Of a stretch of 20,000 nt of DNA, positions 2,001-19,994 are shown piece after piece. Made by a program: the position numbers and the translations under genes. The DNA is from an uncultured virus (IMG/VR IMGVR_UViG_3300048580_000371). Its lineage: Duplodnaviria > Heunggongvirae > Uroviricota > Caudoviricetes. The notes under the pieces are model-generated. The model made no database searches. It was not told the DNA's origin and was given only the letters and a program-made list of their open reading frames with translations. The first letter of the stretch is position 1; every line of letters begins with the position of its first letter. The stretch lies in the IMG/VR virus record IMGVR_UViG_3300048580_000371. One strand, given 5' to 3'.

Positions 2001-2002
2001 TA

Positions 2003-2032
2003 TTGATTTGATAGTGATTAATGATCTACTAT
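2003..2032 (+). promoter_or_regulatory. Putative sigma70-type promoter
   Basis: TTGATT-18nt-TACTAT upstream of SD AAGGAG and ATG 2065; same TTGATT-18 architecture as at 3946 and 11205. Confidence 0.5.
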
Positions 2033-2064
2033 CAATTATTAACTTAACAGAAGGAGTACTAAAA

Positions 2065-2343
2065 ATGAGTATCGCAGCATTATCAACAGACGACAAGGAT
2101 CGTTTAAAAGAAGTTATCACTAAAGCAGCCAAGATGAAATTGGAAGCCAAGGATATTAATGATTCAGTTCGTGATTTAATCAAGAACACAGCCGAACAAA
2201 CAGGCGTTGAAAAGAAAGTCATCGCTGCAGCAGTGAAATATGAATTCAAAGCTCTTGGTAGCGTTGAAGGTGGTGACATCGAGAAAGATAAAGAAGACCT
2301 TTCAGATGTTGAAGAATTATTGCACGTTTGTGGAATTATTTAA
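2065..2343 (+). CDS. dsbA: T4 DsbA-like / GapR-like dsDNA-binding protein
   Basis: SD AAGGAG; 92 aa helical protein LKEVITKAAKMKLEAKDINDSVRDLIKNTAEQTGVEKKVIAAAVKYEFK with an acidic tail, resembling phage DsbA as recalled. Confidence 0.65.
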   Translation: MSIAALSTDDKDRLKEVITKAAKMKLEAKDINDSVRDLIKNTAEQTGVEKKVIAAAVKYEFKALGSVEGGDIEKDKEDLSDVEELLHVCGII

Positions 2344-2350
2344 TCGCTAT

Positions 2351-2384
2351 TATCCCCAGATTAATTTCTGGGGATAGTTTTCTT
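2351..2384 (+). terminator. Intrinsic terminator
   Basis: TATCC(C)CAGA-ttaatt-TCTGGGATA hairpin followed by GTTTTCTTT. Confidence 0.65.
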
Positions 2385-2395
2385 TGGAGGTTTGT

Positions 2396-2674
2396 ATGGG
2401 GCATTATGATGATTATTATGAACAAATTGAAATTAATACTAAAAAAACAAGACAAAGAAAAATTGTAAAAATATGTTCAGAATATAAACAAACCTTTGAT
2501 GATATGACGCTTTTTTTCAGAGATTTTGGTGACATAATTAGTAAAGATGAACTTAATGCAATAACAAATGCTTGGGAAACTTTTCAAGATAAAATTAATA
2601 GAGTTAAAATAAATAATGGGGTTTTGATAACAGACCCTAATATAATAATAAATGAACTTAAAAAAGGAAAATAG
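2396..2674 (+). CDS. Hypothetical protein
   Basis: SD GGAGG at 2386, ATG 2396; 92 aa ORF. Confidence 0.7.
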   Translation: MGHYDDYYEQIEINTKKTRQRKIVKICSEYKQTFDDMTLFFRDFGDIISKDELNAITNAWETFQDKINRVKINNGVLITDPNIIINELKKGK

Positions 2675-2694
2675 AGGATTACTCCTCTATTTTC
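2667..2694. terminator. Probable bidirectional terminator between convergent genes
   Basis: Perfect 12-bp inverted repeat GAAAATAGAGGA-ttac-TCCTCTATTTTC overlapping both stop codons. Confidence 0.65.
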
Positions 2695-3791
2695 AATATT
2701 CCCCTCTTATTTAATTCCTTGGCATAATATAATTTTTCTGGAAACCCTTTTGGTTTTTTAGGTGGATAAATTAATTCTGTTGGAACTGTATTAGATATTA
2801 TCCAAATATCAAATAATTGAACTAATAATTTTTCATTTTGTCGTCTAATGAGTTGTTTCTTTTTCATATTATTTTTTCGTTCATCTGATAATTTAATCCC
2901 AAGATGTGATTTTGACATTTTTTGTCTACGTTCTAATGGAACTGGGACACCATACGAAGGACTGTTTTCACCTGAAAATATTTCTGATAATTTTTTCTTT
3001 GTTTCTTCACTATGATGATGACCATAATGAGCAGCCAATTCACCTGTTTTTCCATAATTAGGGTTTTTTTCACCAGAAACTCTTTCTGATTGTTTTCGTT
3101 TAGTCTCATCAGAGTGTTTATATCCAAATAATGGATTATTTTCACCGGATCGTAACATTGACAATAGTTGTTTTGTTTCTTCTGAATGTTTAAAACCAAA
3201 CAGAGGATGTGCCTCACCTGTAACCCCAAACATTGGATGATTTTCACCTGAAAATATTTCTGATAATTTTTTCTTTGTTTCTTCACTATGATGTTGACCA
3301 TAATGAGCAGCCAATTCACCTGTTTTTCCATACCAATAAGCATTTTCACCTGAATTAGCTTTGTTATATTCAATTTTTATATTTTCAAATACAGAGGCTG
3401 TTATTTTATCAAATCGCTCTGTTCTTGAGCCATTAATAAAGGACCAAAGTGCCACCGTCATCATATTTTTAAATTTTTTATTATTAATCATTTTAACTAA
3501 TAAATGGTGAACAACAAAATGTTCTTTGGCTGACAAAAATACCAAATTATTTTTATCATTATTTCCACCAAACGAACTTGGGAGTATGTGATGATTTTCA
3601 ACATATCCCAATTTTTCCTTGGCTATTTTTCTATTTTTAAAATTTCTTATTTGTGCTTTTTTAATTATCCCTATATACCACTTGGCGTATTTTGATTTAT
3701 TGGACATTTTCCAAATTATATCTAAATAATCAATGTTGTTATCTGTTATAACATTATTTGTGCTTTGATAAATTATTAGATCATTATTCAT
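2679..3791 (-). CDS. Free-standing HNH homing endonuclease with NUMOD3 repeats
   Basis: ENHHILPSSFGGNNDKNNLVFLSAKEHFVVHHLL HNH motif; repeated HSEETKKKLS NUMOD3 motifs; start placed at 3791 by SD AAGGAG and alignment with the other two cassette copies. Confidence 0.9.
   Translation of the reverse strand: MNNDLIIYQSTNNVITDNNIDYLDIIWKMSNKSKYAKWYIGIIKKAQIRNFKNRKIAKEKLGYVENHHILPSSFGGNNDKNNLVFLSAKEHFVVHHLLVKMINNKKFKNMMTVALWSFINGSRTERFDKITASVFENIKIEYNKANSGENAYWYGKTGELAAHYGQHHSEETKKKLSEIFSGENHPMFGVTGEAHPLFGFKHSEETKQLLSMLRSGENNPLFGYKHSDETKRKQSERVSGEKNPNYGKTGELAAHYGHHHSEETKKKLSEIFSGENSPSYGVPVPLERRQKMSKSHLGIKLSDERKNNMKKKQLIRRQNEKLLVQLFDIWIISNTVPTELIYPPKKPKGFPEKLYYAKELNKRGILKIEE
2965..3332. repeat. 92-bp direct repeat inside the HNH gene (2965-3056 and 3241-3332)
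   Basis: One mismatch; 276-nt offset; encodes YGKTGELAAHYG(Q/H)HHSEETKKKLSEIFSGEN twice. Confidence 0.9.
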
Positions 3792-3970
3792 TTTGACATT
3801 TCTCCTTGGTTGTTGTATAAATAACATTGTAGCGGAAAGAGGCATCCTCCTTGGTGTCTGTTGATGGATACGCTAATATTCATCAACCCGCTATAATGTT
3901 ATTTATCTTTTTCTTTAAAATTTGTGTAATTTATTTTCATAAATATTGATTTTTCTTTCTCCATTGTTGT
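3789..3970. repeat. Endonuclease-associated intergenic cassette, copy 1
   Basis: Highly similar to 8500-8647 and 11049-11229: CATTTTGACATTTCTCCTTGG...TATAAATAACATTGTAGCGGAAAGAGG...CCGCTA. Confidence 0.95.
3824..3916 (+). ncRNA. Putative structured small RNA (three-way junction, CUCCUU loop), copy 1
   Basis: TATAAATA at 3816-3823; P1 3830-35/3888-93, P2 3840-46/3853-59, P3 3860-70/3877-87; U-rich tail; copy differences keep pairing through G-U only on the + strand. Confidence 0.6.
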
Positions 3971-4002: not shown

Positions 4003-5700
4003 ATGTATGTTGACGCAATTAAAGATAATGATACTATTTTGTTAGTAGAACGAGTTGATGAAGAACGGGTTTATAGAGAATTCCCTGTTGAATATTATTT
4101 TTATATTGAAAATCCCAAAGGGAAATATACAACCATTTTTGGGACCAAGGCAGAAAAAATTACATCTGCTAATGGAAAAAAATTTAGAGGTGATTTGGCT
4201 ATATATGATAACGAACGAAAATTCGAATCCGACATCAACCCAATATTCAAGTGCCTTGAAAAACATTATCGTGATTGCGAAAACCCAAAATTAAATGTGT
4301 GTTTTTTCGACATCGAAACAGATTTTGACCCGCAGCGCGGTTTTTCGAGTCCCGACGATCCTTTTGCACCCATTACAGCTATAACATGCTATCTCAATTG
4401 GGCAGACCAATTGATAACATTAGTATTACCACCACCAACTGTTTCAATGGATTTTGCCCAAAAAACTTGTACTGAATTTGAAAATACTTTTGTGTGTGAT
4501 TCAGAAGAACAACTTTTAGAAACGTTTTATGATGTAATTGAAGATGCAGATATTCTTTCAGGTTGGAACTCTGGATTTTATGATATTCCATATATCATCA
4601 GACGAACTGAAAAAATCCTTAATAAAGAACTCACAAGAAAGTTGTGTCTTTGGAATAAATTACCACTCAAAAAAGAAGTAGAACGTGGATGGGGAAAATC
4701 AACAACATTTGATCTTGTTGGAAGAGTCCATCTCGACTATCTTGATATCTATAAAAAACATACTTATTCAGAACAACCAAGTTATAAATTGGATTCAATT
4801 GGGTTTGTTGAAGTAGGCGAAACCAAAACCCAATATGAAGGGTCGTTGGATGATTTATATAAAAAGGACTTCAAGAAATTTATTGAATATAACAGGCAGG
4901 ACGTTATGCTCTTGGTAAAGATTGATAGAAAGTTAAAATTCATGGAATTGTCAAATCAGTTAGCCCACCAAAATAGTGTGACGCTAAAAACTACTTTAGG
5001 TTCTGTTGCCCTTATTGAACAGTCCATTGTGAATGAATCCCATGACCGTGGTATGGTTATGGCAGATCAAAAAACCAAAGAAGAGAATGATAAGCATTCA
5101 CTTATCATTTATGATAAAGCAGAACAGGAATACAAGAAATCAGTTGCAGGAGCTTACGTGGCAGAGCCTCAAGTTGGATTATCCCATTGGATAGGCAGCA
5201 TTGACATTAACTCTCTTTATCCATCTGTTATTAGAAGTCTAAACATGGGTCCAGAAACCATCGTTGCCCAAATTAGACAAGATGCTACCAAAAAATGCAT
5301 CACAGATAGATTTGAAGATCAACAAGGACCAGGACCGAAATATAAACAGGCAAGCATGGCAGACTGCTGGAACGGATTGTTTGGATGTTTGGAATATGAA
5401 GAAGTTATGAAGAAATCAGATAAAGAACTTATTCTTGATATGGAAAATGGCGATACTGTCACCATGAAAGCATGGGAAATTTACAATTTTATCTTTGAAC
5501 AAAATAATTCATATTGTCTATCAGCCAATGGAACCATATTCAGAACTGACGTTGAAGGAATTATTCCAGGTCTATTGCGCCGGTGGTATGATGAACGTGT
5601 TGAAATGAAAAACAAAGCCAAGGTGGCTGGGCAAAAAGCATCTGGGGTGGAGGTTAAAGATTCTTCATTGTTGGAACAATTAAAAATGTTGACTTCTTAA
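4003..5700 (+). CDS. polB: Family B DNA polymerase, N-terminal fragment A (3'-5' exonuclease, palm motif A, first fingers helix)
   Basis: ExoI FFDIETD, ExoII GWNSGFYDIPY, ExoIII YNRQDV, AGAYV, motif A DINSLYPSVI, SANG, GIIPGLLRRWYDER; ends before motif B. Confidence 0.95.
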   Translation: MYVDAIKDNDTILLVERVDEERVYREFPVEYYFYIENPKGKYTTIFGTKAEKITSANGKKFRGDLAIYDNERKFESDINPIFKCLEKHYRDCENPKLNVCFFDIETDFDPQRGFSSPDDPFAPITAITCYLNWADQLITLVLPPPTVSMDFAQKTCTEFENTFVCDSEEQLLETFYDVIEDADILSGWNSGFYDIPYIIRRTEKILNKELTRKLCLWNKLPLKKEVERGWGKSTTFDLVGRVHLDYLDIYKKHTYSEQPSYKLDSIGFVEVGETKTQYEGSLDDLYKKDFKKFIEYNRQDVMLLVKIDRKLKFMELSNQLAHQNSVTLKTTLGSVALIEQSIVNESHDRGMVMADQKTKEENDKHSLIIYDKAEQEYKKSVAGAYVAEPQVGLSHWIGSIDINSLYPSVIRSLNMGPETIVAQIRQDATKKCITDRFEDQQGPGPKYKQASMADCWNGLFGCLEYEEVMKKSDKELILDMENGDTVTMKAWEIYNFIFEQNNSYCLSANGTIFRTDVEGIIPGLLRRWYDERVEMKNKAKVAGQKASGVEVKDSSLLEQLKMLTS

Positions 5701-6787: not shown

Positions 6788-7363
6788 ATGGCAACACATG
6801 ATGTTTCGGGTAATCTTGGGTGTAGGAAATTTAATTTCGATATATTGGAAAAATTAATCCATATTTTTCCAAGCGAAAAACCAAATGTTACTGTTGGTAT
6901 TGAAACGTTAGATGGCACTATTAACTTTGAAAATGTTGAGGAATTTATTAAATATATTAATACTTTATCCAAACAATGTACCATCACTAAAATAAATGTT
7001 CATATTATTAATGAAAATTATGACAGGGTATATATTTGTTTTAATAGATTTGTAGGAACTTATTATTCTGTGTCAGCCAAAGACCCATTCTTGATGACTG
7101 AAACATCTAATAAAATTAAAGCGTTATTGCCAAAACATACCCCAATTTTACCACCATATATTACCTTTATATTGTTTGGTGTAATATTAGGCGCTTGTTT
7201 GGCATTGTCTTGGTGGTGGGCATATGGTATTATTTTTGGTATATGGATGATTGGTTTGAACCTTCTTGGCAAAAAATTCTTTACAAAGTATCCAATTTGG
7301 CCATTCAACAGCATTGATCTAAAGACCGATGCATTGTTGTTTAAATTGAAATATATTCCATGA
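6788..7363 (+). CDS. Membrane protein ending in the FKLxW-type motif
   Basis: Two TM segments then KTDALLFKLKYIP. Confidence 0.75.
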   Translation: MATHDVSGNLGCRKFNFDILEKLIHIFPSEKPNVTVGIETLDGTINFENVEEFIKYINTLSKQCTITKINVHIINENYDRVYICFNRFVGTYYSVSAKDPFLMTETSNKIKALLPKHTPILPPYITFILFGVILGACLALSWWWAYGIIFGIWMIGLNLLGKKFFTKYPIWPFNSIDLKTDALLFKLKYIP

Positions 7364-7632
7364 AAATATCAGTTATTACTTCTGATAAAACTAAATTTAG
7401 TTATTGGGTATGGGTATACAAAATATATAAGGGTTATGTTAATACTAAACAAACGTCTGTTTGTTTCACCAAAGACTTTATAAATAAAGTTCAAAATGGT
7501 GTGGAACAATTAAAAAAGATGGGTGTTGTGGAATTTCAATTGTGTTATCTTATTAATGATACTTACAATTTAACATTTATTTTTGATAATGCCCAAAACG
7601 CAATGTTGTTTAAATTAAAATGGAGAGAATGA
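7360..7632 (+). CDS. FKLxW-family hypothetical protein
   Basis: ATGA overlap; ends FIFDNAQNAMLFKLKWRE. Confidence 0.75.
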   Translation: MKISVITSDKTKFSYWVWVYKIYKGYVNTKQTSVCFTKDFINKVQNGVEQLKKMGVVEFQLCYLINDTYNLTFIFDNAQNAMLFKLKWRE

Positions 7633-8502
7633 TTAATCTATATATCGTAAATCTAAATTTTTATACTTGGCTCCCTTTCCAGTAGGTTTGTGTGTCCCTT
7701 CCAAAATATTTTTTATAACATTATAACCAATTTTTAATTCAGAAGTTATTTCTTTTAAGGTATTCCATGATTTCACACACACCCCATCAACAAATAATCC
7801 AGCTTTAAATTTGAATTTAAGTTTATTAATTTCATTCATATCTAATTGTTCAACTTTATAATATCTAACATAATGATCTTTTACAAGCCAATGTTGAAAT
7901 TTAGATGCAGCCAATGATAAATTGGTGTGTCCAGTATTAAGAAACACTGCAGCACGATGAATACTAACAAATTCTTTTATAAATTTACCATTTTTATCAT
8001 AAATGCTTGTTTGTATTCTTGTTGGTTGGACTTCTGGTGAAATTTCTGCCATTCTTTGTTTTTCTTCTGGTGTCCACTTATGCCAATTTCTTCCCTTACT
8101 GGCTTCACCTATTAATTTTTTAGCTTCATCTGTATGTGTTTTTCCAAACATTCCATTGTCTGCTCCTATTCTTGCTGGAGGTCTATTGGAAATTCTGGCT
8201 ATATTTGTTAATATTCCAGTGTTATCTACCCGAAGTCCATATTTATAAATAAGAGTTTCTTCAAAATCATATGCGTCATTTTCATCTATAAACCCTTCTT
8301 TAATGATTTGTTCAATAGGTTCCAACCCTTGATTTAATAAATGTTTGATATAATTATCTTTAAATGAATTGTTTGATGAATTACCTCTTTTAACATCTTT
8401 AACGTGGCGTTTTATTCTGTCATTTTTTCCCTTACCAATATAAAAAGGTAAATTTGTTGTTGGGTCTATTAAAGCGTATACATAAAAATTTGTGTCTTTC
8501 AT
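7633..8502 (-). CDS. Free-standing GIY-YIG homing endonuclease with NUMOD3/NUMOD1-like domains
   Basis: FYVYALIDPTTNLPFYIGKG, RIKRH, E..LI..YG, LTN; GKTHTDEAKKLIG. Confidence 0.9.
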   Translation of the reverse strand: MKDTNFYVYALIDPTTNLPFYIGKGKNDRIKRHVKDVKRGNSSNNSFKDNYIKHLLNQGLEPIEQIIKEGFIDENDAYDFEETLIYKYGLRVDNTGILTNIARISNRPPARIGADNGMFGKTHTDEAKKLIGEASKGRNWHKWTPEEKQRMAEISPEVQPTRIQTSIYDKNGKFIKEFVSIHRAAVFLNTGHTNLSLAASKFQHWLVKDHYVRYYKVEQLDMNEINKLKFKFKAGLFVDGVCVKSWNTLKEITSELKIGYNVIKNILEGTHKPTGKGAKYKNLDLRYID

Positions 8503-8673: not shown

Positions 8674-8729
8674 ATTATGAAATGAAGTGTTATGTTTGTA
8701 TCATAACATCTAATAAGGAGGATATTGTT

Positions 8730-9497
8730 ATGACATACAAATTAACATTTTTGGGATCTGGTTCTGCATTTACACCGCCTTGGGGAGATAACTATCAATC
8801 CAATATGGTTTTTCAATCACCATCAGGTAAGAAATTACTTATCGACTGTGGAACACAAGTTCATATGGGATTGCATGACCAAGGCTGGAGTATTTTTGAT
8901 ATTGATGCAGTTTATATCAGTCACCAACATTCTGACCATATTGGAGGGCTGGAAGAGACCGCCTTCAAAACATATTTTACCCCAAATCACCCAAAACCAA
9001 AAATGATCGCTTATGGGAGAATGTTGGATTTTCTTTGGAATGAAAGCCTTCGAGGTGGTCTTGCAAGCCTTCAAGGACAAATGGCAACGTTAGCTACTTA
9101 TTTTGATCTTGTACCAGTTGCCCGTAATAGTGGATTTGAATGGGAAGGCAATGAATTCAAATTAATCCGCACCATACACATAATGGATGGGTTTGATTTT
9201 GTCCCATCATATGGATTAATGTTTGACCTAAATGGTAAGAAGGTATATTTAACCACAGATGCCCAACATTGTCCACACCAAATCATGGACTTTTATAAAA
9301 TGGCAGATGTGATTTTCCAAGATTGCGAAACAACACCATTTAAATCTGGTGTCCATGCACACTATAGCGAATTAGTAACGTTGCCAGATGAAATTAAAAA
9401 TAAAATGTGGTTGTACCATTATCAACCTGGTGATTTACCTGATGCTATAAAGGATGGTTTCTTGGGATTTGTAAAGAAAGGACAAACATTCGAATGA
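8730..9497 (+). CDS. MBL-fold metallo-hydrolase, Apyc1-like (anti-Pycsar) cyclic nucleotide phosphodiesterase candidate
   Basis: SD AAGGAGG; LGSGSAF, LLIDCG, SHQHSDHIGGLEE, LWNESLRGGL, FQDC, GVHAHYSEL, LYHY. Confidence 0.8.
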   Translation: MTYKLTFLGSGSAFTPPWGDNYQSNMVFQSPSGKKLLIDCGTQVHMGLHDQGWSIFDIDAVYISHQHSDHIGGLEETAFKTYFTPNHPKPKMIAYGRMLDFLWNESLRGGLASLQGQMATLATYFDLVPVARNSGFEWEGNEFKLIRTIHIMDGFDFVPSYGLMFDLNGKKVYLTTDAQHCPHQIMDFYKMADVIFQDCETTPFKSGVHAHYSELVTLPDEIKNKMWLYHYQPGDLPDAIKDGFLGFVKKGQTFE

Positions 9498-10124: not shown

Positions 10125-11051
10125 TTAGGTTTGTTCTGTCTTTATAAAATTTTCATAACGAGTTTCGACCATTTCAATTGATATTTTCTTTTGTGTTTCA
10201 TTATCTACAAATATTAATTCAGGTATCCAATTTTTATTACTAATTCTTATAAAATTGTATCCTTGTTTCCAAGCACTATTTTGTTTGAGTCTGTCCCTTA
10301 CTATTTGTTGTTTTGATATTGTATGGAAATATTCACCATCAACTTCAACTAATAAATGTAAATCTGGTATATAAAAATCATATAACCATTGCCCTCTATT
10401 ATTAACATCATTCACTATAAATTGGTGTTCAAATATTATACCAAAATCATTTAAAAATTCTTTAAATAACAGTTCAATATCTGTATCTTTTTTCTTTGTT
10501 GGATTGTTTTTAATATAATTGCACATCGCTATTGATTGTTTTTCTCTGGCTTCTGGTGATGGTATTCTTCCTTTTGGGTGCATTAAATCTGGGAATAAAC
10601 GATTTAATTCTTTTAGTCTTGCCCCAGCTGCATCACGTTGTTCTTGGGTCTTGATAAAAAATCCCAAACCAGGTTGACATTTCCACCCGGCAGCGAATCT
10701 GCGTTGTATTTCACCAATCATAAAGACACGCATAAATTCTTTATGTTCTTCAGTATGGGAACCCCAAGATACTCCTGTTCTTATTTTTGAAAGTTTTTGT
10801 TTTGTTTCTTCAGAACGCTTTATCCCGGTAAGTGCATTGACTACTTTTTGTTTGTATTCATCATTGTGCATTGGATTATTTTCTCTAAAACCTTTTCCCA
10901 AATCATGAGCCAAAGATTCACACACTATTGGACTGTTTGGGTAGAGTTCTTTATATTTGTTAGTATCAATCCCATGTTTTTTTAGATGAGTTTTGGTTAT
11001 TCTTTTAAATTTACAGTTGCATATTTCGCAGGTTATTAAATCCATATTCAT
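10125..11051 (-). CDS. Free-standing Vsr/DUF559-like (EDxHD-type) endonuclease with N-terminal zinc finger and NUMOD3
   Basis: CEIC...THLKKH; RSEETKQKLS; DTDIE, YDFYIPDLHLLVEVDGEYFH, RDRLK, GYNFIRI. Confidence 0.85.
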   Translation of the reverse strand: MNMDLITCEICNCKFKRITKTHLKKHGIDTNKYKELYPNSPIVCESLAHDLGKGFRENNPMHNDEYKQKVVNALTGIKRSEETKQKLSKIRTGVSWGSHTEEHKEFMRVFMIGEIQRRFAAGWKCQPGLGFFIKTQEQRDAAGARLKELNRLFPDLMHPKGRIPSPEAREKQSIAMCNYIKNNPTKKKDTDIELLFKEFLNDFGIIFEHQFIVNDVNNRGQWLYDFYIPDLHLLVEVDGEYFHTISKQQIVRDRLKQNSAWKQGYNFIRISNKNWIPELIFVDNETQKKISIEMVETRYENFIKTEQT

Positions 11052-11234: not shown

Positions 11235-11263
11235 TAAAGAATAACAAGTAAGGAGGTAAATCA

Positions 11264-13024
11264 ATGGCAGACTATAATCCAAAAGATTTAACCAAATTAA
11301 TCCAAGAAGGTGATGCTGGAAAGATAAAGGCATATATGGATGAATATGATTTGGTGTTATCTGGGAGTAAAATTGTCCCAAAATCTGATAAGGCAAAAGA
11401 GCATAAGGCTGAAGAAGCCTTTATGGATATGCGGCAGCACAGTCGTAAAATCTTGTTAAATTCGTAAATATTGCGACTTCATGCAGTGATGTATGTCGAA
11501 AAACCCCTTTAACTGCTGGAAACTCTGACCGTGAAAGACGAAGACAATCAGCAGCCAAGCCCTTGAAAAAGGGAAGGTTCAACGACCAGAGAGAAATCTC
11601 GTAGACCCAAGTGGGTCGAAATGGGGGGTATCCTGTAAATCAGGATAGTGATATGGTCTATTCTTTATGGAAACATAAAGCAGCGAAAGCGGGATAAGAG
11701 TAACGACCTTATTCGAATATCAAGTATATGGTGCCTAAAAATTGGGCCATTAATTAGTAATAATTAATTGAAAACCCCTTTAATTGCTGGAAACTCTGAC
11801 CGTGAAAGACGAAGACAATCAGCAGCCAAGCGAAAAGAAATTTTCGAAGGTTCAACGACTATGCGAAAGCAGTAGGTCCAAGTGGATCGAAATGGGGGGT
11901 ATCCTGAAATTTGTCAGGATAGTGATATAGTCTTTTCTTTATGGAAACATAAAGCTGCGAAAGCGGGATAAGAGTAACGACCTTATTTGAAAATTAAAGT
12001 GTTGAACGAAAATATGAGAAATTATGATCCAAGAATTGGCTCCAGCGTTACTATGACTGGAAGGTGTATCTCTCGTCATATGGCTGGTGTTGTGAATGAT
12101 ATTATCTGTGGTGTAAAGGATCATCGTGGGGAATCAATTATATATGGTGATTCTGTGCATGAACGAACAATAATCAATACTAATATGGGATTGTTTACTA
12201 TTGGGCAATTATATGATTATTGTAGTAATAAATGGGAAGAACGTGGAAAATATTTTAGTTCGGATGATACCATAAAGGTTTTATCATATAATCCTGAAAC
12301 AAAACAACCAGAATATTATCCAATCAATCATGTGATTAAACATTGGACAGAAAAAGAAATGTTTGAAATTCGTGATACAAGGAGAATAGAACCAAATGTT
12401 GCAAACACAAATTTTGTTATTGTGACTGCTGATCATTCATTAATGATTGAACGAAATGGTGATTTGGTAAAAATAAAACCAACTGATATATTACCAACAG
12501 ATGTTTTAATTGGTTTGGCTGATGATAATAAAGATGGACAACGTATAGTTTATAAAAGCACTTGTGAAATAAAATCATTGGGTATTGTGCCACAGAATGT
12601 TTATGATATATCAATTAAATCTGATGATAAAAGTAGGCATACGTTTTTTGGAAACAACATTTTATTAAAAAATACAGATTCTGTTAAATGGAATAGTAAA
12701 ATTGATACAAAAACAGGTGAAACATCAATTGAAAATTTATTTCAGACCTGTGAAAAGAAATGGGTTGATGGCGAGAAGGAATATGCTTGGTCTGATGTAA
12801 AGATTAAAGCATTTGATGGTAAGACCAAGAAAGCCAAATACATGCCTGTAAATTATATTTATCGTCATAAAGTATCAAAAGACCAATGGGTTATTAAAGC
12901 AGAAACAGGACAAGAAGTAATAACTACCGGTGACCACTCTATTATGGTTGAACGAAATAAAGAAATTATTGAAGTAAAACCAATTGAAATAAAACCTGAT
13001 GATTTATTGATAATAAATGGGTAA
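11264..13024 (+). CDS. polB: Family B DNA polymerase fragment B precursor: join(11264..11465,11725..11736,12000..13024), 412 aa including inteins
   Basis: Splicing restores motif B RQHSRKILLNSLYGALLNENMRNYDPRIGSSVTMTGR; removing intein 1 gives IIYGDTD (motif C). Confidence 0.92.
11466..11724 (+). ncRNA. Group I intron 1 (259 nt, no ORF)
   Basis: Exon ends in U with P1 TCGT/GCGA U-G pair; P AACTGCTGGAA, Q AATCAGCAG, R TCAACGACCA, S GATATGGTCT; terminal G 11724; splicing restores the frame. Confidence 0.92.
11737..11999 (+). ncRNA. Group I intron 2 (263 nt, no ORF)
   Basis: P1 GCCT/GGGC with U-G; P AATTGCTGGAA, Q AATCAGCAG, R TCAACGACTA, S GATATAGTCT; terminal G 11999; splicing restores the frame. 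Confidence 0.92.
12152..12673 (+). mobile_element. Cis mini-intein (174 aa) at YGD|TD
   Basis: Starts with Ser (SVHERT), block B VTADHSL, block F VYDISI, ends HTFFGNNILLKN with +1 Thr; no endonuclease domain. Confidence 0.9.
12680..13021 (+). mobile_element. N-terminal half of a split intein (114 aa) at YGDTD|
   Basis: Starts SVKWNSKI, block B TTGDHSI, ends IKPDDLLIING* with no block F/G; paralogous to intein 1. Confidence 0.85.
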
Positions 13025-13090: not shown

Positions 13091-14122
13091 ATGGTTGGAT
13101 TTAGAAAAGAAGAATTTTATATAAAAAAATTTGGTGAAGAAAAAGGCAAGGATGAATATCAACGAGTATTAATAGCTCGTGATAAAAGACAATCACGACT
13201 GGACACAGGTAGAGGGGTTGAATATAAAGTTTATACTGAAGAAGATGTTTTAAATGGTGATGCTATTAAATGTCAATGTTGTGGTTATATAACATCGAGA
13301 TTACAATGGACCCACTTTAAATATAAATGTATTATTAAAACGTCAGAAGAATATTTAGAAAAATATCCATTGGCATTAATAGTGGCACCAAATTTAAGCA
13401 AAAAAACATCAATGACTTTAGAAAATATGATTGAGCTTCATGGCGAAATAAATGGAAAAATTAAATGGGAACAATATTGTTTAAAGCAAGCAGAAACTAA
13501 TTCATTTGAATATAAAGCAGAAAAATATAATATATCAGAAGACGATTTTAAAAAATATAATAAATCAAGAGCTGTAACATTAGAAAATTTAATAAAAAAA
13601 CATGGGGAAGACGAAGGATTAAAAAAATGGAATGATTATTGTGATAGACAAAAATATACTTGTTCATTAGAATATTTTATTGAAGAATATGGGGAAGATG
13701 AAGGATTAAATCGTTATACTTATTGGCATGAAAAAAGAGTTTGTAATGGTAATGGTGGAATTTCTGACGCAGAAGAAATTGTATTTGATATATTAGATAA
13801 TTATATTGGGGAAAACGTTAGACAATTAGTTTTAAAACATGATACCATTGATAAACATTATAGATATGATTATGCCAATGTAGAAAAAAGAAAAATAATT
13901 GAATTTAATGGAACTTATTGGCACTGTGATCCAAGAAAATATGTTGAGGATTATATTCATACCAAAACAAAATTAACAGCTGGACAAATATGGGCGAGAG
14001 ATGAGGATAAAATTAATTGTGCCAAACGTCTTGGGTATGATATTATGATTATATGGGAAAAAGACTGGAATACAAATCAAGAAAAAATTATATCTGATGT
14101 TGTATCATGGTGGAATAGATAA
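13091..14122 (+). CDS. Free-standing Vsr-like (EDxHD-type) endonuclease with zinc finger and repeated YGE(D/E)EG-like units
   Basis: CQCCG...THFKYKC; repeats FGEEKG/HGEDEG/YGEDEG; SDAEE, YDY...IIEFNGTYWHCDP, RDEDK, GYDIMIIWEKDW. Confidence 0.85.
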   Translation: MVGFRKEEFYIKKFGEEKGKDEYQRVLIARDKRQSRLDTGRGVEYKVYTEEDVLNGDAIKCQCCGYITSRLQWTHFKYKCIIKTSEEYLEKYPLALIVAPNLSKKTSMTLENMIELHGEINGKIKWEQYCLKQAETNSFEYKAEKYNISEDDFKKYNKSRAVTLENLIKKHGEDEGLKKWNDYCDRQKYTCSLEYFIEEYGEDEGLNRYTYWHEKRVCNGNGGISDAEEIVFDILDNYIGENVRQLVLKHDTIDKHYRYDYANVEKRKIIEFNGTYWHCDPRKYVEDYIHTKTKLTAGQIWARDEDKINCAKRLGYDIMIIWEKDWNTNQEKIISDVVSWWNR

Positions 14123-14685: not shown

Positions 14686-14976
14686 ATGGACAATGGAGTG
14701 AAATCATATCATGTAACTGGTGATTGGGAAGTATTTCGTGTCCCTGTGCCAAAATATATGGAGTGTGAAATATTATATGATGCGATATGGACATGGTGTG
14801 CTGATAAATTGGAAGGTCCATTTAAAGTATTCAATGTTTCTTATGGGTCATCAAAATCTTTTTATAAAAATGGTAAACCAAGCAAAACATTAGAAACACT
14901 TGCATATAGGGAATTAGTTCAGGTTGATATTCAAAGAAAATCAGATGCTATTTTGTTTAAATTAAAGTGGGGGTAA
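14686..14976 (+). CDS. FKLxW-family hypothetical protein
   Basis: IWTWCADK; ends RKSDAILFKLKWG. Confidence 0.8.
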   Translation: MDNGVKSYHVTGDWEVFRVPVPKYMECEILYDAIWTWCADKLEGPFKVFNVSYGSSKSFYKNGKPSKTLETLAYRELVQVDIQRKSDAILFKLKWG

Positions 14977-14978
14977 TA

Positions 14979-15305
14979 ATGTATTATGAAGTATGTTATC
15001 ATAGATTTGCAGGAAAAATAATTCAATCACCATATGAAAATGGTTATCAAATGTCCAGAGAAGAATTTTCTGTTGGTTGTCATTCTACCAATCCATACCA
15101 TTGGACGACAAATCGTTGGGTATTTGAACGTTTAATTTGGTGTAAGGAAAATAATTTAAAATTGGCTGGATTTGACACACAAGCTTATATTAAAAGTTAT
15201 GAAGGACACGAATATAAACCAATTAGAGGTTCATTAATTACTGTATTAGAATTTAGGTTCATTAGAAAATCAGATGCATTATTTTTCAAATTAAAGTGGA
15301 GTTGA
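14979..15305 (+). CDS. FKLxW-family hypothetical protein
   Basis: LIWCKEN; ends RKSDALFFKLKWS. Confidence 0.8.
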   Translation: MYYEVCYHRFAGKIIQSPYENGYQMSREEFSVGCHSTNPYHWTTNRWVFERLIWCKENNLKLAGFDTQAYIKSYEGHEYKPIRGSLITVLEFRFIRKSDALFFKLKWS

Positions 15306-15306
15306 C

Positions 15307-15858
15307 ATGAAATTAACATTGAGTGATGATTTAAGGGAAACACTAAAAACGTCAACGTCAGATATTCAATCTGGGGAAGGTAGTTTGTATTATTATTCTT
15401 CACAAATTTGTGATGCAAGAGAAATGTTAGTATATACTTATATTTGGATGACACTAAAAAAGTATTCATTTGATGATTTTAAAATAATGGTTCAAATGGA
15501 CCCATTTATCCCTATTCAAGATATTAGAAATAGTACTAAATATGTTGTTGTGTTTTTTAATGAAGAAAAATATTTATCATTTGTGGAAACAATAAAAATA
15601 ATTAACGTTGGGACAATGTTCCCTGTATTATCCAATATAGGAAATTGTATTCCTGTTGAATATCCATTAATGGATTACAGTAGTTTTTCCGGCATACCAT
15701 TTGCAGCTGGTGATTCTGAATTTCAAGTATCGCAACATATTATAGATATATTTTGTTGGATGGTAGAAAATTGTCAAGGGAAATATTATCGTTATGGTAA
15801 ATTTTTCTTTTTTGAAACATCAGAAGATGCAATGTTATTTAAATTGAAGTGGAGTTGA
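15307..15858 (+). CDS. FKLxW-family hypothetical protein (long form)
   Basis: FCWMVENCQGKY; ends FFFETSEDAMLFKLKWS. Confidence 0.8.
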   Translation: MKLTLSDDLRETLKTSTSDIQSGEGSLYYYSSQICDAREMLVYTYIWMTLKKYSFDDFKIMVQMDPFIPIQDIRNSTKYVVVFFNEEKYLSFVETIKIINVGTMFPVLSNIGNCIPVEYPLMDYSSFSGIPFAAGDSEFQVSQHIIDIFCWMVENCQGKYYRYGKFFFFETSEDAMLFKLKWS

Positions 15859-15860
15859 TA

Positions 15861-16247
15861 ATGGAAGAATTATTTTTTGAATATGGTGTGTTTTTTAAAG
15901 TCACAGATACAGGGCTTGCCCCAATGGAAGAAATAAAATCATTTAATGAATCATTTTATAATTTATGGAAATCAATTTATGATTGTAAAAATTATAAAAA
16001 TTATGGTGAAAAAGATTGGGAAGTGGTTTTAGTTGAAAACCATTATCAAAAATACTCCCAAAAGAAATGTTCGGTGTTTTGTATGGAAAAATGTACAGGT
16101 GGCTGGGCAACGAGAAATTATTATATCACAAATGGTTCAGATGATATTGATTGTGAAGAATTTAAAAAAACTTTTAAATCTGGCATTGCATATTATTTTG
16201 AAAAACCTGAAGATGCTATATTATTTAAATTATCAATGGAGGCTTGA
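15861..16247 (+). CDS. FKLxW-family hypothetical protein
   Basis: FCMEKCTGGW; ends YFEKPEDAILFKLSMEA. Confidence 0.8.
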   Translation: MEELFFEYGVFFKVTDTGLAPMEEIKSFNESFYNLWKSIYDCKNYKNYGEKDWEVVLVENHYQKYSQKKCSVFCMEKCTGGWATRNYYITNGSDDIDCEEFKKTFKSGIAYYFEKPEDAILFKLSMEA

Positions 16248-16248
16248 C

Positions 16249-16410
16249 TTGTTAAAATGGTTAAAAAGATTAATTGTTGGTTGCGACCATGATTTTGCTA
16301 TTATTAATAGCGTAGCAACAAGAAAAATTGGTGGTTATTTATATAATCAAGAACCAAAGAAAATTTTCTTTTGTAAGAAATGTGGTAAAAAGAAGGAGAC
16401 ATGGGGATAA
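16249..16410 (+). CDS. Small zinc-ribbon-like phage protein
   Basis: SD GGAGG 16238, TTG start; GCDH...CKKCG. Confidence 0.6.
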   Translation: MLKWLKRLIVGCDHDFAIINSVATRKIGGYLYNQEPKKIFFCKKCGKKKETWG

Positions 16411-16721
16411 TGTTAAGGATGCATGGACATGGTTTTCCTGTTTTAACACCAAACTTACCTGAAGGTTATATAGAAAATCCAGGTTGGTATGATGATAATG
16501 TTCTTGAATATACTTTTAGTGGAAATTGGACTGAGTTAACATTTCGCAATGAAGGCAGTTTCACTCTTTATTGGGATAAGTTTGAAGATGCTGAAAATTG
16601 GATTCAAAATAATATTCAAAATTGGCAAGAAAATGCTTGTTGGATTCGGATCAATGATTGTTCGTATTTTTATTTCAAACATTCCAGTGACGCCATGTTA
16701 TTTAAATTGAGGTGGTTATGA
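16410..16721 (+). CDS. FKLxW-family hypothetical protein
   Basis: ENWIQNN; ends FYFKHSSDAMLFKLRWL. Confidence 0.8.
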   Translation: MLRMHGHGFPVLTPNLPEGYIENPGWYDDNVLEYTFSGNWTELTFRNEGSFTLYWDKFEDAENWIQNNIQNWQENACWIRINDCSYFYFKHSSDAMLFKLRWL

Positions 16722-17011
16722 TTATTCATTCATCGCTTGGTGTTTATGATGAAGAAACAATAGATGAATATTTGTTTGATGATCAGGAACATTATCGTCA
16801 AACATTGTATTATTATTATCGTTTGGATAGAAATTTTGAATCAATAAAAATTAGACAATGGTTAGATGATAATAAAATTCCTTATGTAATAGGATGGACT
16901 AAAATTGAAAAGTTACCAAATCCAGGTGAACTTTACAAGTATTCAATTAGATGTTATTTGAAAATATTGCATAAAAAAGATTTCCTAATATGTAAATTGA
17001 GGTGGTTATGA
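16718..17011 (+). CDS. FKLxW-family hypothetical protein
   Basis: IRQWLDDN; ends KKDFLICKLRWL. Confidence 0.8.
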   Translation: MIIHSSLGVYDEETIDEYLFDDQEHYRQTLYYYYRLDRNFESIKIRQWLDDNKIPYVIGWTKIEKLPNPGELYKYSIRCYLKILHKKDFLICKLRWL

Positions 17012-17232
17012 CACATTTTAAAACAAATATAAATTGGATAGATAGATTATTACAAAATGGAGTTGTGGTTATTATATCTCAGTCCAATTATGAAAAAGCT
17101 TTTAATTGGGCAGGGAAAAACATTGAAAATTTTAAATGGTTAGCAATGAACACAATGACCAAAGTACCAAATTATCATTTTTATTTTGAAAATCCCAATG
17201 ATGCAATGATATTTAAATTGAAATGGAGATAA
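17008..17232 (+). CDS. FKLxW-family hypothetical protein
   Basis: FNWAGKN; ends FYFENPNDAMIFKLKWR. Confidence 0.8.
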   Translation: MTHFKTNINWIDRLLQNGVVVIISQSNYEKAFNWAGKNIENFKWLAMNTMTKVPNYHFYFENPNDAMIFKLKWR

Positions 17233-17233
17233 A

Positions 17234-17794
17234 ATGGAAGAAGAATGGGAAACAGAGCCTGATTTTAAAGAAGGAAAATATCTTGGTTACAGTTATAATA
17301 TTAAACGCCATCCAGAGATGAAGCATCTTTGTGGATATGTTGTCGTGCCAAAATCCCATATGTTATATAGGGATGAAAATGTGTGTGAACGTATTATTAA
17401 TTGTCATGGTGGGATTACCTATACAGGTATTGATACAGGGAAGTGGGCAATTGGATTTGACTGTGCCCATTCAGGGGACAAATCACCAAGTCTTGCACAT
17501 TTTTTAAAAAACAGCCCTTATGATAATCCTTATGATAGTGGTGTATATCGTAATATTGAATATGTTGAAAGAGAATGTTATGATATTATTGTACAATTAA
17601 AACAATTGTCTGGCTTTAAATATTATGATATGAGTGGTTATTCATCCAATGATGTTGATGATAAAATTCAGTGGTGCATGGAAAATTGTCGTGGGCAATG
17701 GAAATTTTTGGAAGATTTTTATAATATTATAGTTTTTAAAAACAAACAAGATTTTATGTTTTATCGTTTAAGATGGGGGGTTGGAAATGACTAA
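17234..17794 (+). CDS. Fusion of a CGYV/HGGITY/GFDCAH phage domain to an FKLxW domain
   Basis: HLCGYV, CHGGITY, IGFDCAH then IQWCMENCRGQW...QDFMFYRLRWG. Confidence 0.8.
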   Translation: MEEEWETEPDFKEGKYLGYSYNIKRHPEMKHLCGYVVVPKSHMLYRDENVCERIINCHGGITYTGIDTGKWAIGFDCAHSGDKSPSLAHFLKNSPYDNPYDSGVYRNIEYVERECYDIIVQLKQLSGFKYYDMSGYSSNDVDDKIQWCMENCRGQWKFLEDFYNIIVFKNKQDFMFYRLRWGVGND

Positions 17795-18044
17795 CACCAT
17801 ATTAATAGATTTTATCGATAAAAAATATGAATATGATAAATTTTGGTGGGCATTTTATGTAGATGGAGAAACTGGCTTACCATATTATGACCTTGACACC
17901 AGCTTATTAACTTGGTTGAAGAAAAAAGAAACAATTCATTATATATATTTGACTGCAGACAGGCACAGAAGTCATTTAAGCGGCGTTGAATTTCATTTTG
18001 ACAATAAAGAAGACATGTTATTATTTAAATTACAATGGTTATAG
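17787..18044 (+). CDS. FKLxW-family hypothetical protein
   Basis: LTWLKKK; ends FHFDNKEDMLLFKLQWL. Confidence 0.8.
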   Translation: MTNTILIDFIDKKYEYDKFWWAFYVDGETGLPYYDLDTSLLTWLKKKETIHYIYLTADRHRSHLSGVEFHFDNKEDMLLFKLQWL

Positions 18045-18052
18045 GAGAAAAT

Positions 18053-18283
18053 ATGAATAAGATATTATTAAATAATAATTGTTTTGACTATTCATTTCAA
18101 AATGGTTTTTCCATACACAATGAAGTATTTGAATGGTTAAAAGAAAATAACATCAAATATTTACAAATAACAGACTATATACCTGTTGAAAATAAACCAA
18201 ATTGTTGGGCAGGATTAATATGGTTAGGATTTCAAAACAGAAACGACGCAATGCGTTTTAAATTAAGGTGGGGTGGACAATGA
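18053..18283 (+). CDS. FKLxW-family hypothetical protein
   Basis: SD AGGAG; FEWLKEN; ends NDAMRFKLRWGGQ. Confidence 0.8.
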   Translation: MNKILLNNNCFDYSFQNGFSIHNEVFEWLKENNIKYLQITDYIPVENKPNCWAGLIWLGFQNRNDAMRFKLRWGGQ

Positions 18284-18702
18284 TTAAATATGTAGCTGGG
18301 TTTATTTTTTCGCCAGAACGAGATAGGGTTCTTCTTATTAGGAAAAATCGTCCTGATTTTCAGGCTGGAAAATTAAATGGTATTGGTGGTAAAGTTGAAC
18401 AAGATGAAACATATCTTCAAGCCATGATGCGTGAAACATATGAAGAATCTGGTTTGATAATACACGAATGGACAAATTTCGCAATATTAAATCATCAAAA
18501 CTATTGTATCCATTTTTATATGTCAATATCAGACTACTATTGTGATTTTTTTAATAAAACAGATGAAAAAATTGAAATACACATTGTTAATCAATTATCA
18601 ATTAGAAATGATTTAATGAATCATATTAGATGGTTGGTCCCACTATCTTTAAATACAGACATCAAATTTCCAATTGAATATACAGATATAGGGGTGAATT
18701 AA
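18280..18702 (+). CDS. Nudix (MutT-like) hydrolase
   Basis: Nudix box GGKVEQDETYLQAMMRETYEESGL. Confidence 0.92.
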   Translation: MIKYVAGFIFSPERDRVLLIRKNRPDFQAGKLNGIGGKVEQDETYLQAMMRETYEESGLIIHEWTNFAILNHQNYCIHFYMSISDYYCDFFNKTDEKIEIHIVNQLSIRNDLMNHIRWLVPLSLNTDIKFPIEYTDIGVN

Positions 18703-18711
18703 AACTGTAAA

Positions 18712-19053
18712 ATGGTTTGTAATTGTGAATTTTGTACTATTTTTAGGCGTGTTAAAGATAATCCATATCCTGCAGAAGGAGACATGAATAATTTGTCTTG
18801 GATAGAGGAATTAGAATTAGAAGATATGTTGAAAGCTTGGTATGTTAGAGTTTTTGTTGATGAATTAAAATTTAGAGAAAATGAAGATATGATTAATGAT
18901 TGGTTAGAAGATAATTGTAAGTGTGAATATGATATTCAAGATTTTATATCACAGAAAAACTGTGGAACCATGATAACATTTTTTTATAATAGGAATGATA
19001 ATGGTGAACAAGCTAAAAAAGATGCAGTGTTGTTTAAATTAAAGTGGGGTTAA
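18712..19053 (+). CDS. FKLxW-family hypothetical protein
   Basis: INDWLEDNCKCEY; ends KKDAVLFKLKWG. Confidence 0.8.
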   Translation: MVCNCEFCTIFRRVKDNPYPAEGDMNNLSWIEELELEDMLKAWYVRVFVDELKFRENEDMINDWLEDNCKCEYDIQDFISQKNCGTMITFFYNRNDNGEQAKKDAVLFKLKWG

Positions 19054-19054
19054 A

Positions 19055-19375
19055 ATGAAAGAGATTTTTATGTTTGGATATGCCAATAAATTATATCAAA
19101 AATATAATTACAAAGATTGTGTCACCGGTCAAAAATATCCCCAAGATAGAAAAATCGTTGGTGGAAAGAAATTCTTTTTACCATGGAAAAATACTTGGAA
19201 AGGTGGTTTTCAAATCAGAGATGGTTGTACAACAGAAACAACAAAATATGTTAAAGAATTAAAACAATATGCCAAACATCGTTGGGAATTGACTTGTGAT
19301 GAATATTATGATCGAGTATTGGTGAATTTTATGGACAACAGGGATTTATTATTTTTTAAATTGAGGTGGGGATGA
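19055..19375 (+). CDS. FKLxW-family hypothetical protein
   Basis: Ends NRDLLFFKLRWG. Confidence 0.8.
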   Translation: MKEIFMFGYANKLYQKYNYKDCVTGQKYPQDRKIVGGKKFFLPWKNTWKGGFQIRDGCTTETTKYVKELKQYAKHRWELTCDEYYDRVLVNFMDNRDLLFFKLRWG

Positions 19376-19644
19376 TTTCTTATACCTACAACGATTTTGT
19401 CAATAATACTACCTATTTTAGACCAGGTACTGTTGAGCGTATGCGTTGTTATATGTTATGCAAGGAGAGTGGCTGGTTCCCAGAAATTATTTTTGTATTT
19501 GGTGGAAAAGATTCGACCATTATAATAGCTGATATGATACAATGGTGCAAAGAAAATTGTAAAGGGAAATGGGCGTTTGAAAATTGGTATATTAAATTTG
19601 AAACATCCAATGATGGAATGTTATTTAAAATGAGATGGGGATAA
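19372..19644 (+). CDS. FKLxW-family hypothetical protein
   Basis: MIQWCKENCKGKW; ends SNDGMLFKMRWG. Confidence 0.8.
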   Translation: MISYTYNDFVNNTTYFRPGTVERMRCYMLCKESGWFPEIIFVFGGKDSTIIIADMIQWCKENCKGKWAFENWYIKFETSNDGMLFKMRWG

Positions 19645-19646
19645 AC

Positions 19647-19994
19647 GTGGCTATAAATTATAACACACTTAAAGCAAGCATTAATAATTCTAATACTATC
19701 CAGATTAGTAATTTTAAATATTCAATTGAACCAAAGGTTGAATTTTGTATAGAATATCAACAATGGCTTTACACGCTTGTTAATACAATGAATGAAAAAA
19801 TTAAAATTGATGATTGGATTAAAAATTATTTACAACCAAAAACAGTTATAATTTTGAAACAACATTCAGATATGGAGATATTAAAAAATTGGGCAACAGA
19901 ACATGCTAAAGGAAAATATTGTATTTATTCCACTAATATTGTAATATTTGAAGACAACCAAGATGCAATAATGGTAAAGTTAAAATGGAGTTAA
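19647..19994 (+). CDS. FKLxW-family hypothetical protein
   Basis: Probable GTG start; KNWATEHAKGKY; ends NQDAIMVKLKWS. Confidence 0.8.
   Translation: MAINYNTLKASINNSNTIQISNFKYSIEPKVEFCIEYQQWLYTLVNTMNEKIKIDDWIKNYLQPKTVIILKQHSDMEILKNWATEHAKGKYCIYSTNIVIFEDNQDAIMVKLKWS

Follow-up and report, generated by a model that had tools for sequence, protein, structure and literature searches.

Three similar group I introns within a single open reading frame (ORF), orf142 of Staphylococcus phage Twort, are said to have been described by Landthaler and Shub in 1999. The locus considered here lies in a 20,000-nucleotide stretch of DNA from an uncultured virus of the Caudoviricetes (IMG/VR record IMGVR_UViG_3300048580_000371), hereafter the window, in which a family-B DNA polymerase is encoded by two separate genes; the second of these is interrupted by two group I introns (11466-11724 and 11737-11999) flanking an exon of 12 nucleotides (nt) that encodes the core of motif B. 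For the Twort ORF, printed as orf182 in the account cited here, three group I introns that resemble one another, and exon skipping, are described (PMC3073962; this source and PMC11878797, PMC10352661, PMC1299323, PMC3984707 and PMC2677866 are cited from excerpts), and Bastillevirinae phages carry group I introns in DNA polymerase, ribonucleotide reductase and terminase genes (PMC11878797, NAR 2025). As far as these excerpts extend, the occurrence of several similar group I introns in a single phage gene, of small exons between introns and of exon skipping has already been published for Twort and the Bastillevirinae; the Bastillevirinae polymerases belong to family A (PMC11878797), whereas the window polymerase belongs to family B. 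Like the Twort ORF, the window gene holds several similar, compact, ORF-less and apparently subgroup-IA introns lying close together, and skipping of the internal exon would be possible. Unlike Twort, its host gene is the family-B polymerase of what looks like a jumbo phage, the introns number two, and the internal exon measures 12 nt. Since this micro-exon encodes invariant residues of a catalytic motif, its skipping should give a dead enzyme and not an isoform.

An exon of a single base pair reportedly exists in placozoan cox1. Exons of less than about four codons flanked by group I or group II introns are regular in mitochondrial genes (PMC10352661), and a 1-nt exon between two group II introns is on record (PMC12308204). 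These organellar mini-exons differ from the window exon in that they sit in organellar genes, often with protein-assisted splicing and with flanking introns that are not reported as sister copies, whereas the window is phage DNA. Titles on mini- or micro-exons of group I introns contained no phage case, and supplements of the Bastillevirinae paper may hold comparable ones. Dense loads of introns and inteins are known in the polymerases of crAss-like and Jug phages (PMC7886860; PMC12880540). The details that appear uncommon here are a 12-nt exon carrying an invariant Tyr-Gly, the sister status of two introns with retuned guides, and a parallel pair of inteins.

We consider it likely that 11466-11724 and 11737-11999 are two functional, ORF-less, subgroup IA-like group I self-splicing introns, one of which was copied from its neighbor at the DNA level. 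The sequence-only reading had described twin paralogous introns of 259 and 263 nt sharing long identical blocks and had proposed a scan with Rfam group I models as a check. That scan, run with cmscan at the gathering threshold (50 bits for RF00028), gave exactly two matches in the whole window, both to RF00028 and both full-length (model positions 1-253 of 253), at 11437-11680 (89.1 bits, E 6.3e-22) and 11726-11954 (97.8 bits, E 1.5e-24). The Rfam model leaves intron ends unfixed, and the ends were set by the rules that U precedes the intron and G is its last base, together with homology to uninterrupted polymerases. A T precedes both introns and both end in G, and moving either intron by a single base breaks the U/G rules and alters conserved residues; the boundaries of intron 1 (11466-11724, plus strand, 259 nt, guide GCGA at 11473-11476) and intron 2 (11737-11999, plus strand, 263 nt, guide GGGC at 11744-11747) therefore follow, and both lengths agree with those first proposed. 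The shared blocks were recovered by a repeat finder as direct repeats of 61 nt (98% identical), 84 nt (93%) and 38 nt (89%) at a spacing of 271-274, and a global alignment places 223 identical positions within the 259 and 263 nt, with a mean column identity of 89% in a MAFFT alignment. A nested twintron or twin-ribozyme arrangement, with no exon between its members, was considered and rejected, as the two introns are adjacent and not nested, and homology demands the four residues encoded by the intervening 12 nt.

The case for these boundaries is carried above all by the protein that they restore. Exon 1 (11264-11465, plus strand) has its own AGGAGG ribosome-binding site and ATG, shares 45.5% identity with the beginning of the second polymerase coding sequence (CDS) of Agrobacterium phage Atu_ph07, is colinear with relatives, and ends in ...RKILLNS plus the first base of a Leu codon. 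The micro-exon, TATATGGTGCCT (11725-11736, plus strand), encodes Leu-Tyr-Gly-Ala together with one base of exon 1 and two of exon 3. The extein part of exon 3 (12000-12151, plus strand), which reads LLNENMRNYDPRIGSSVTMTGR...IIYGD, runs from the rest of motif B to the first half of motif C and aligns to Atu_ph07, to Sinorhizobium phage Phosso and to four IMG/VR relatives (L004-L007). Joining 11264-11465, 11725-11736 and 12000 onward in silico removes 522 nt, with predicted junctions AATTCGT/TATATGGTGCCT/TGTTGAAC, and yields an open frame reading ...RQHSRKILLNS-LYGA-LLNENMRNYDPRIGSSVTMTGR..., across motif B, labeled Kx3NSxYG in family-B DNA polymerases. The first 122 spliced residues were compared by tblastn with seven loci, namely the polymerase loci of Atu_ph07 and Phosso (L001 and L002), a portal-like locus (L003) and L004-L007. 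Six of the seven matched, the portal-like locus giving no match to the spliced polymerase residues, and the gaps (0, 0, 2, 1, 1 and 1) lie away from the junctions, with none at residues 66-72. KILLNS-LYGA-LLNE is thus colinear with all six intron-less relatives. The 14 residues KILLNSLYGALLNE are identical and uninterrupted in Atu_ph07, Phosso and L004, and L005-L007 read KINLNSCYGGLLN at this place. An Rfam scan of the seven sources returned no RF00028 match. In the opposite direction, a tblastn with the Atu_ph07 protein matches the window over its residues 1-66 and again over 71-122, and the stretch left for the micro-exon is exactly four residues long. Skipping the micro-exon in silico keeps the frame (KILLNSLLNEN) and loses LYGA, as the sequence-only reading had foreseen when it assigned L-Y-G-A to this exon.

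Both ribozymes share one P1 design, with four exon pairs including a U.G at the cut, two A-U pairs within the intron and a triloop. In intron 1 the exon strand UCGU|AA faces UUGCGA, and in intron 2 GCCU|AA faces UUGGGC, so the claim of differing guides matched to their own exons (GCGA/TCGT against GGGC/GCCT) holds. The two guides differ at two positions, which are those needed to match their own exons, and duplex energies show that each guide prefers its own exon over the other intron's site. The unconstrained fold of intron 2 favors a register that leaves the splice-site U unpaired. P7 lies outside the nested pairs of the Rfam model and was read directly from the printed strands, as GACCA (11584-11588) with TGGTC (11654-11658) in intron 1 and GACTA (11857-11861) with TAGTC (11928-11932) in intron 2, in agreement with the compensatory change noticed earlier. 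Across 48 family members the variable pair is U-A in 44, has an unscorable 5' side in three and is C-G in intron 1 only, and the change is therefore derived in intron 1.

This P7 pair is one of 13 that differ on both sides between the two introns. Counts made by script add four in P2, five in P6a, where the entire stem is replaced, two in P7.1 and one in P7.2, which also shows one A-U to G.U change; all 13 both-side changes preserve pairing. Helices P3, P4-P6, P8 and P9 are intact in both introns, as are P2, P6a, P7.1 and P7.2 of intron 1 and all of the helices compared in intron 2, and the only helix mismatch is an A x G in P9.1 of intron 1. Read by eye, the P8 stem is ATCCTG/CAGGAT in both introns and the loops alone differ. 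Two further hairpins stand between P7 and the 3' strand of P3, namely P7.1 (GAGA-GAAA-UCUC or UGC-GAAA-GCA) and P7.2 (GACCC-AAGU-GGGUC or GGUCC-AAGU-GGAUC). Extra helices P7.1 and P7.2 at this position define subgroup IA, to which introns of phages T4, Twort and SPO1 belong, and by these two hairpins and that definition both window introns would be classed as subgroup IA-like. A natural variant adds to the pattern: a metagenome contig of about 90% identity (X4 record 18, which over 11236-11686 departs from the window by 42 substitutions and 43 gap letters) has intron 1 at this same site, with two more compensatory pairs in P8, at 11633/11643 and 11635/11641. Such a pattern is the mark of selection on a working fold, which is a different thing from proof of activity.

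Relatives of the introns were found across phage and metagenome sequences. Matches to phage records by blastn are short, with 198 of 216 records at 60-80% identity, 18 at 80-90% and none covering 80% or more of the query; the matching records are mainly Staphylococcus phages (69 of 216; Twort- or K-like) and Bacillus phages (34 of 216). A 20-mer of the P4-P6 core is present in 96 IMG/VR stretches, while 31-42-mers that include the P5 loop occur in one IMG/VR contig (L003), six metagenome stretches and no genome contig. The relatives carrying these longer words all have an endonuclease ORF in a loop and are located in other genes, and none of the relatives found lies within a polymerase gene. 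The closest sampled relative is the intron of L003 (IMGVR_UViG_3300006879_000202, at about 1838-2575, minus strand), which sits in a portal-like gene, encodes a 185-amino-acid (aa) ORF and shares an identical 42-nt P4-P6 block and a similar 3' tail with the window introns. Rfam at the gathering threshold overlooks ORF-bearing relatives, and missed the L003 intron because its endonuclease ORF splits the intron.

Maximum-likelihood trees were built from ORF-less family members, to which the ORF-deleted introns of L003 and L104 and two introns of a complete 247-kilobase (kb) IMG/VR phage (G001) were later added; segments were dropped if the script located no P7' motif up to 190 nt from the 20-mer, as happened for 54 of the 107 harvested, or if they duplicated another sequence. 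Introns 1 and 2 are sisters in all three trees, with ultrafast bootstrap (UFBoot) support of 95 among 44 sequences, an SH-like approximate likelihood ratio test (SH-aLRT) of 37.8 and UFBoot of 86 among 46, and 95.5 and 95 among 48. Identities agree with this placement: in the family alignment introns 1 and 2 are 81.5% identical to each other and at most 72% identical to any of the other 45 members, and their 3' domains are 93% identical to each other against 81-83% to L003. These comparisons support a reading of the two introns as paralogs and mutual nearest relatives among up to 48 family members, and together with the two full-length Rfam matches and the in-silico splice they bear out the proposal of twin introns around a motif-B micro-exon.

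In the mechanism that we propose, each intron would fold independently, its guide pairing with the last four bases of the preceding exon (UCGU with GCGA; GCCU with GGGC) and a U.G pair marking the cut. Guanosine would open each intron, and release would follow after the terminal G. Exon 1, the micro-exon and exon 3 would then be joined, giving KILLNS-LYGA-LLNE and restoring the nucleotide-binding motif B. The micro-exon would be used by both ribozymes, acting at its 5' end as 3' exon for intron 1 and at its 3' end as P1 substrate for intron 2. As to origin, one intron was most likely copied to the neighboring site at the DNA level, through a double-strand break made by a homing endonuclease of the locus and illegitimate repair from the resident copy, after which, since an essential gene had to go on being spliced, selection would have altered the guide and several helices through compensatory substitutions. 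We favor copying at the DNA level because the same gene has two paralogous inteins, separated by 6 nt, for which movement as RNA is excluded, to our knowledge there being no route by which inteins move through RNA; because four endonuclease-like genes lie within the 20 kb; because the nearest intron relatives all carry endonuclease ORFs; and because G001 has three family introns in one gene. That the second copy arose locally is something we infer.

The sequence-only reading had assigned the second copy to local transposition by reverse splicing with guide re-adaptation; the paralogy and the retuned guides are supported and the reverse-splicing route is not: neither guide as it now stands fits the other's site, and no observation here favors an RNA route. 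A route in which an intron reverse-spliced into the polymerase mRNA 12 nt away, followed by reverse transcription, recombination and later guide re-adaptation, would account for sister copies at two sites of one transcript whose guides differ as the exons require, and the classical circumstantial case for it is built on finding related introns at several positions within a gene (PMC1299323; PMC3984707). In ribosomal DNA (rDNA), related group I introns at different sites are taken as evidence of spread by reverse splicing (PMC1299323), and the window resembles that case in that a single gene has related introns at more than one site, the guide of each being fitted to its own; it differs from the fungal rRNA introns in being a protein-coding phage gene with introns 12 nt apart, endonuclease genes on both sides and parallel inteins (PMC1299323). 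Relaxed endonuclease specificity combined with illegitimate recombination has been put forward as the alternative to reverse splicing (PMC3984707). We judge the RNA route quite unlikely for this pair. The intron 2 guide on the end of exon 1 is predicted at +0.5 kcal and the intron 1 guide on the end of exon 2 at -2.7 kcal in a register lacking the U.G pair, so that a newly inserted intron would splice poorly until two guide positions had changed; no reverse transcriptase appears among the 36 window ORF products or segments scanned, which are a part of the window's ORFs; the pathway is described as lacking direct experimental support in the excerpted review (PMC3984707); and the paralogous inteins call for a DNA-level explanation in any case. 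The main rival to copying within the locus is that the two introns were acquired independently by homing from intron-bearing phages, their likeness reflecting core conservation and later gene conversion, which we regard as possible though rather improbable. Conserved motifs draw several insertions, the longest identical blocks are family-wide (the 20-mer in 96 IMG/VR stretches, the 42-mer in L003), P2, P6a and P7.1 are wholly different in sequence, as expected of old separate lineages, and the sister pair is weak in one tree. Set against this, the copies remain each other's closest outside the family-wide blocks, as the 3' domain shows, and in overall identity; no relative was found in a polymerase gene, and all six related polymerases are intron-less.

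Several observations weigh against our preferred reading of two working introns, one copied from the other at the DNA level. The SH-aLRT of 37.8 is weak sister support, the sister status rests on a family sampled through one exact 20-mer, and a similar picture could result from gene conversion, the copies being 271 nt apart. An intron-less or single-intron allele was not seen among contigs of metagenome sets X2-X5, none of which closes over either intron; these pieces are mostly short and leave many parts uncovered, and a single-intron allele was likewise not detected by Rfam in L001-L007. An upstream exon hexamer, AGTCGT (AGUCGU; 11441-11446, plus strand), is the full complement of the intron 1 guide sequence GCGACT, with a duplex of -7.3 kcal as against -3.1 kcal at the site that homology requires, 19 nt further downstream. 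Both the minimum-free-energy fold in native context and the Rfam P1 alignment choose this hexamer, which may be a cryptic or competing 5' splice site or a folding trap that could cause mis-splicing. A 5' splice site at 11446, as in the Rfam P1 alignment, was rejected, and since splicing there would delete KILLNS and run into a stop codon the hexamer can only be a competing site. P10 pairings are predicted to be negligible (0 to +2 kcal), and the X4 variant also carries T11462>G, which would weaken P1 and alter a Ser codon. None of the 22 runs that contain the stretch is recorded as RNA, and for this reason we infer splicing activity, and with it any order of splicing. The C-terminal third of the polymerase gave no significant tblastn match in the window with Atu_ph07 and Phosso C-terminal queries, which leaves this part outside the window and the gene as a whole only putatively functional. 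The last of these points, together with the competing pairing upstream of intron 1, a gene broken five ways and a first intein that ends Lys-Asn and scores below its Pfam cut-off, would suit a locus in which one or both ribozymes, or the whole fragmented gene, are decaying remnants with no working enzyme. We hold such decay to be highly unlikely, because every frame is open and the splice regenerates motif B exactly, 13 of 13 both-side changes keep their pairs and natural variants add compensatory ones, the arrangement recurs unchanged in other lake metagenome studies, and no second family-B polymerase was noticed in the window. That recurrence also bears on whether reads of two different family introns were mis-joined, as might be suspected from the many family members in the same lake samples, the depth peaks over the conserved cores and the tendency of most aligned contigs to continue unlike the window. 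The stretch was found in lake-water and freshwater metagenomes, in 22 runs from 22 studies; one run contains 98% of the sampled words and is a possible source of the window. Contigs X2 record 6 (11588-11814) and X5 record 30 (11628-11778) cross the micro-exon with no difference, running from the unique 3' part of intron 1 to the unique 5' part of intron 2, and the outer junctions are crossed by X2 record 2 (exon 1 to intron 1) and X3 record 14 (intron 2 to exon 3). Because contigs from two other studies bridge the micro-exon, the tandem arrangement is not an assembly artifact, and with the micro-exon encoding exactly the four missing residues we give a mis-join almost no credence. One X4 joint that 'goes back 259' (depth 2, 13 foreign letters) was considered as a rearrangement and is instead taken as another family member aligning to both cores.

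The locus around the introns is itself unusually fragmented. The window has a GC content of 30.6% and looks like part of a jumbo phage, its source being an uncultured AT-rich freshwater phage of apparently that kind. The first gene of the split polymerase (4003-5700, plus strand, 565 aa) encodes the exonuclease domain, motif A and the start of the fingers, matches Pfam DNA_pol_B_exo1 (83 bits) and DNA_pol_B (41.6 bits), and is 46.7% identical to the Phosso polymerase and 45.9% to that of Atu_ph07. The five breaks in the polymerase are the gene split, the two introns, a mini-intein and a split intein. The split point is the same as in Atu_ph07, where the two CDSs are 18 nt apart whereas here they are separated by 5.5 kb with about ten ORFs; in Phosso and L004 the polymerase is one continuous gene. 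The 5.5-kb insert includes GIY-YIG endonuclease, Apyc1-like hydrolase and Vsr/DUF559-like endonuclease genes. The hydrolase ORF (8682-9497) matches the anti-Pycsar nuclease family Apyc1 (PF23023; 99 bits, cut-off 50).

Downstream of the introns, the same polymerase gene carries a pair of inteins. Intein 1 (12152-12673, plus strand) is a complete mini-intein of 174 aa placed between YGD and TDS of motif C, a site at which relatives read an uninterrupted Y[NA]DTDS; it matches Pfam Intein_splicing at 13-153 of 155 positions with 23 bits, below the 35.8-bit cut-off, and ends Lys-Asn. Intein 2 (12680-13021, plus strand) is an N-terminal half only, 114 aa long, with the ORF stop at 13022-13024, and matches positions 10-94 of 155 of the same model at 35.8 bits. 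The two are separated by 6 nt, the two codons Thr-Asp (12674-12679), and with 33% identity (E 2e-22) they are paralogous.

The four endonuclease-like genes in the window are all free-standing. One (10125-11051, minus strand), 213 nt before exon 1, has a zinc-finger N-terminus and a Vsr/DUF559-like nuclease C-terminus, with sub-threshold Pfam matches to MTES_1575, DUF559 and ROS_MUCR and with PHROG 559/9084/314, annotated as HNH or homing endonuclease. A second, Vsr/DUF559-like (13091-14122, plus strand; PHROG 22677 and 503), follows the split-intein half; these two share zinc-finger (Cys/His) and C-terminal nuclease segments and flank the second polymerase gene. The others are a homing-endonuclease-like gene with five NUMOD3 repeats (2679-3845; PHROG 655) and one with GIY-YIG and NUMOD1/3 (7633-8502, minus strand). 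A free-standing endonuclease gene adjoining an intron-bearing gene marks collaborative homing, and this adjacency is found at both 10125-11051 and 13091-14122, so that the neighboring endonucleases may mobilize the ORF-less introns in trans. As in the excerpted accounts of collaborative homing systems, ORF-less introns here adjoin free-standing endonuclease genes (PMC2677866; PMC3984707), and as in the 'fractured genes' described there, a phage replication enzyme has half of a split intein with a Vsr-like endonuclease gene, itself free-standing, coming next. The order of N-extein and N-intein followed by the endonuclease gene is present, with the C-intein and C-extein outside the window; unlike in fractured genes (PMC2677866), the window shows no C-terminal intein or extein after the endonuclease gene.

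Elsewhere, at 164-2000, 7340-7632 and 14686-19994, the window contains tandem arrays of small ORFs, at least 19 in number and about 75-190 aa long, that share a C-terminal motif, D-A-x-L-F-K-L-K/R-W followed by 0-4 residues; for the 5 of 19 members compared with Pfam or PHROGs, no family reached its threshold.

The G001 phage offers a parallel to the twin introns. It has 14 RF00028 matches, seven of them over the cut-off, and its locus L113 (C1:75903-79164, minus strand) contains a gene interrupted by three family introns, which are set apart by exons of 41 and 69 nt. An endonuclease ORF (a 780-nt insert) lies in P6 of the third intron, and the second and third are identical at 227 of 248 aligned positions, with sister support of only 0/56. 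We raise, tentatively and with more doubt than confidence, the idea of a general 'next-door seeding' of self-splicing elements, in which a single DNA-level process would have produced the sister introns 12 nt apart, the inteins 6 nt apart and the G001 introns with their spacings of 41 and 69 nt. A homing endonuclease would cut at a place offset from an occupied site, repair would copy the resident element into the break, and guide or extein contacts would be retuned later.

In summary, the locus illustrates the degree of fragmentation that a gene essential for replication can undergo and yet, apparently, be kept. When metagenomic phages are annotated from their ORFs, a four-codon exon such as this one, with the invariant Tyr-Gly of motif B, goes unseen. 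The means by which group I introns arrive at new sites have long been in question, and the pair is suited to the study of ectopic spread; as sister introns 12 nt apart whose guides differ at exactly the two positions demanded by their exons, it is a natural system for testing both the DNA-level and the RNA-level routes. If next-door seeding is true, the locus would be the first natural, dissectable case of group I introns colonizing new sites in protein-coding genes, and the near-identical 3' domains of the twins would also predict cross-use of splice sites, with an in-frame product that lacks LYGA.

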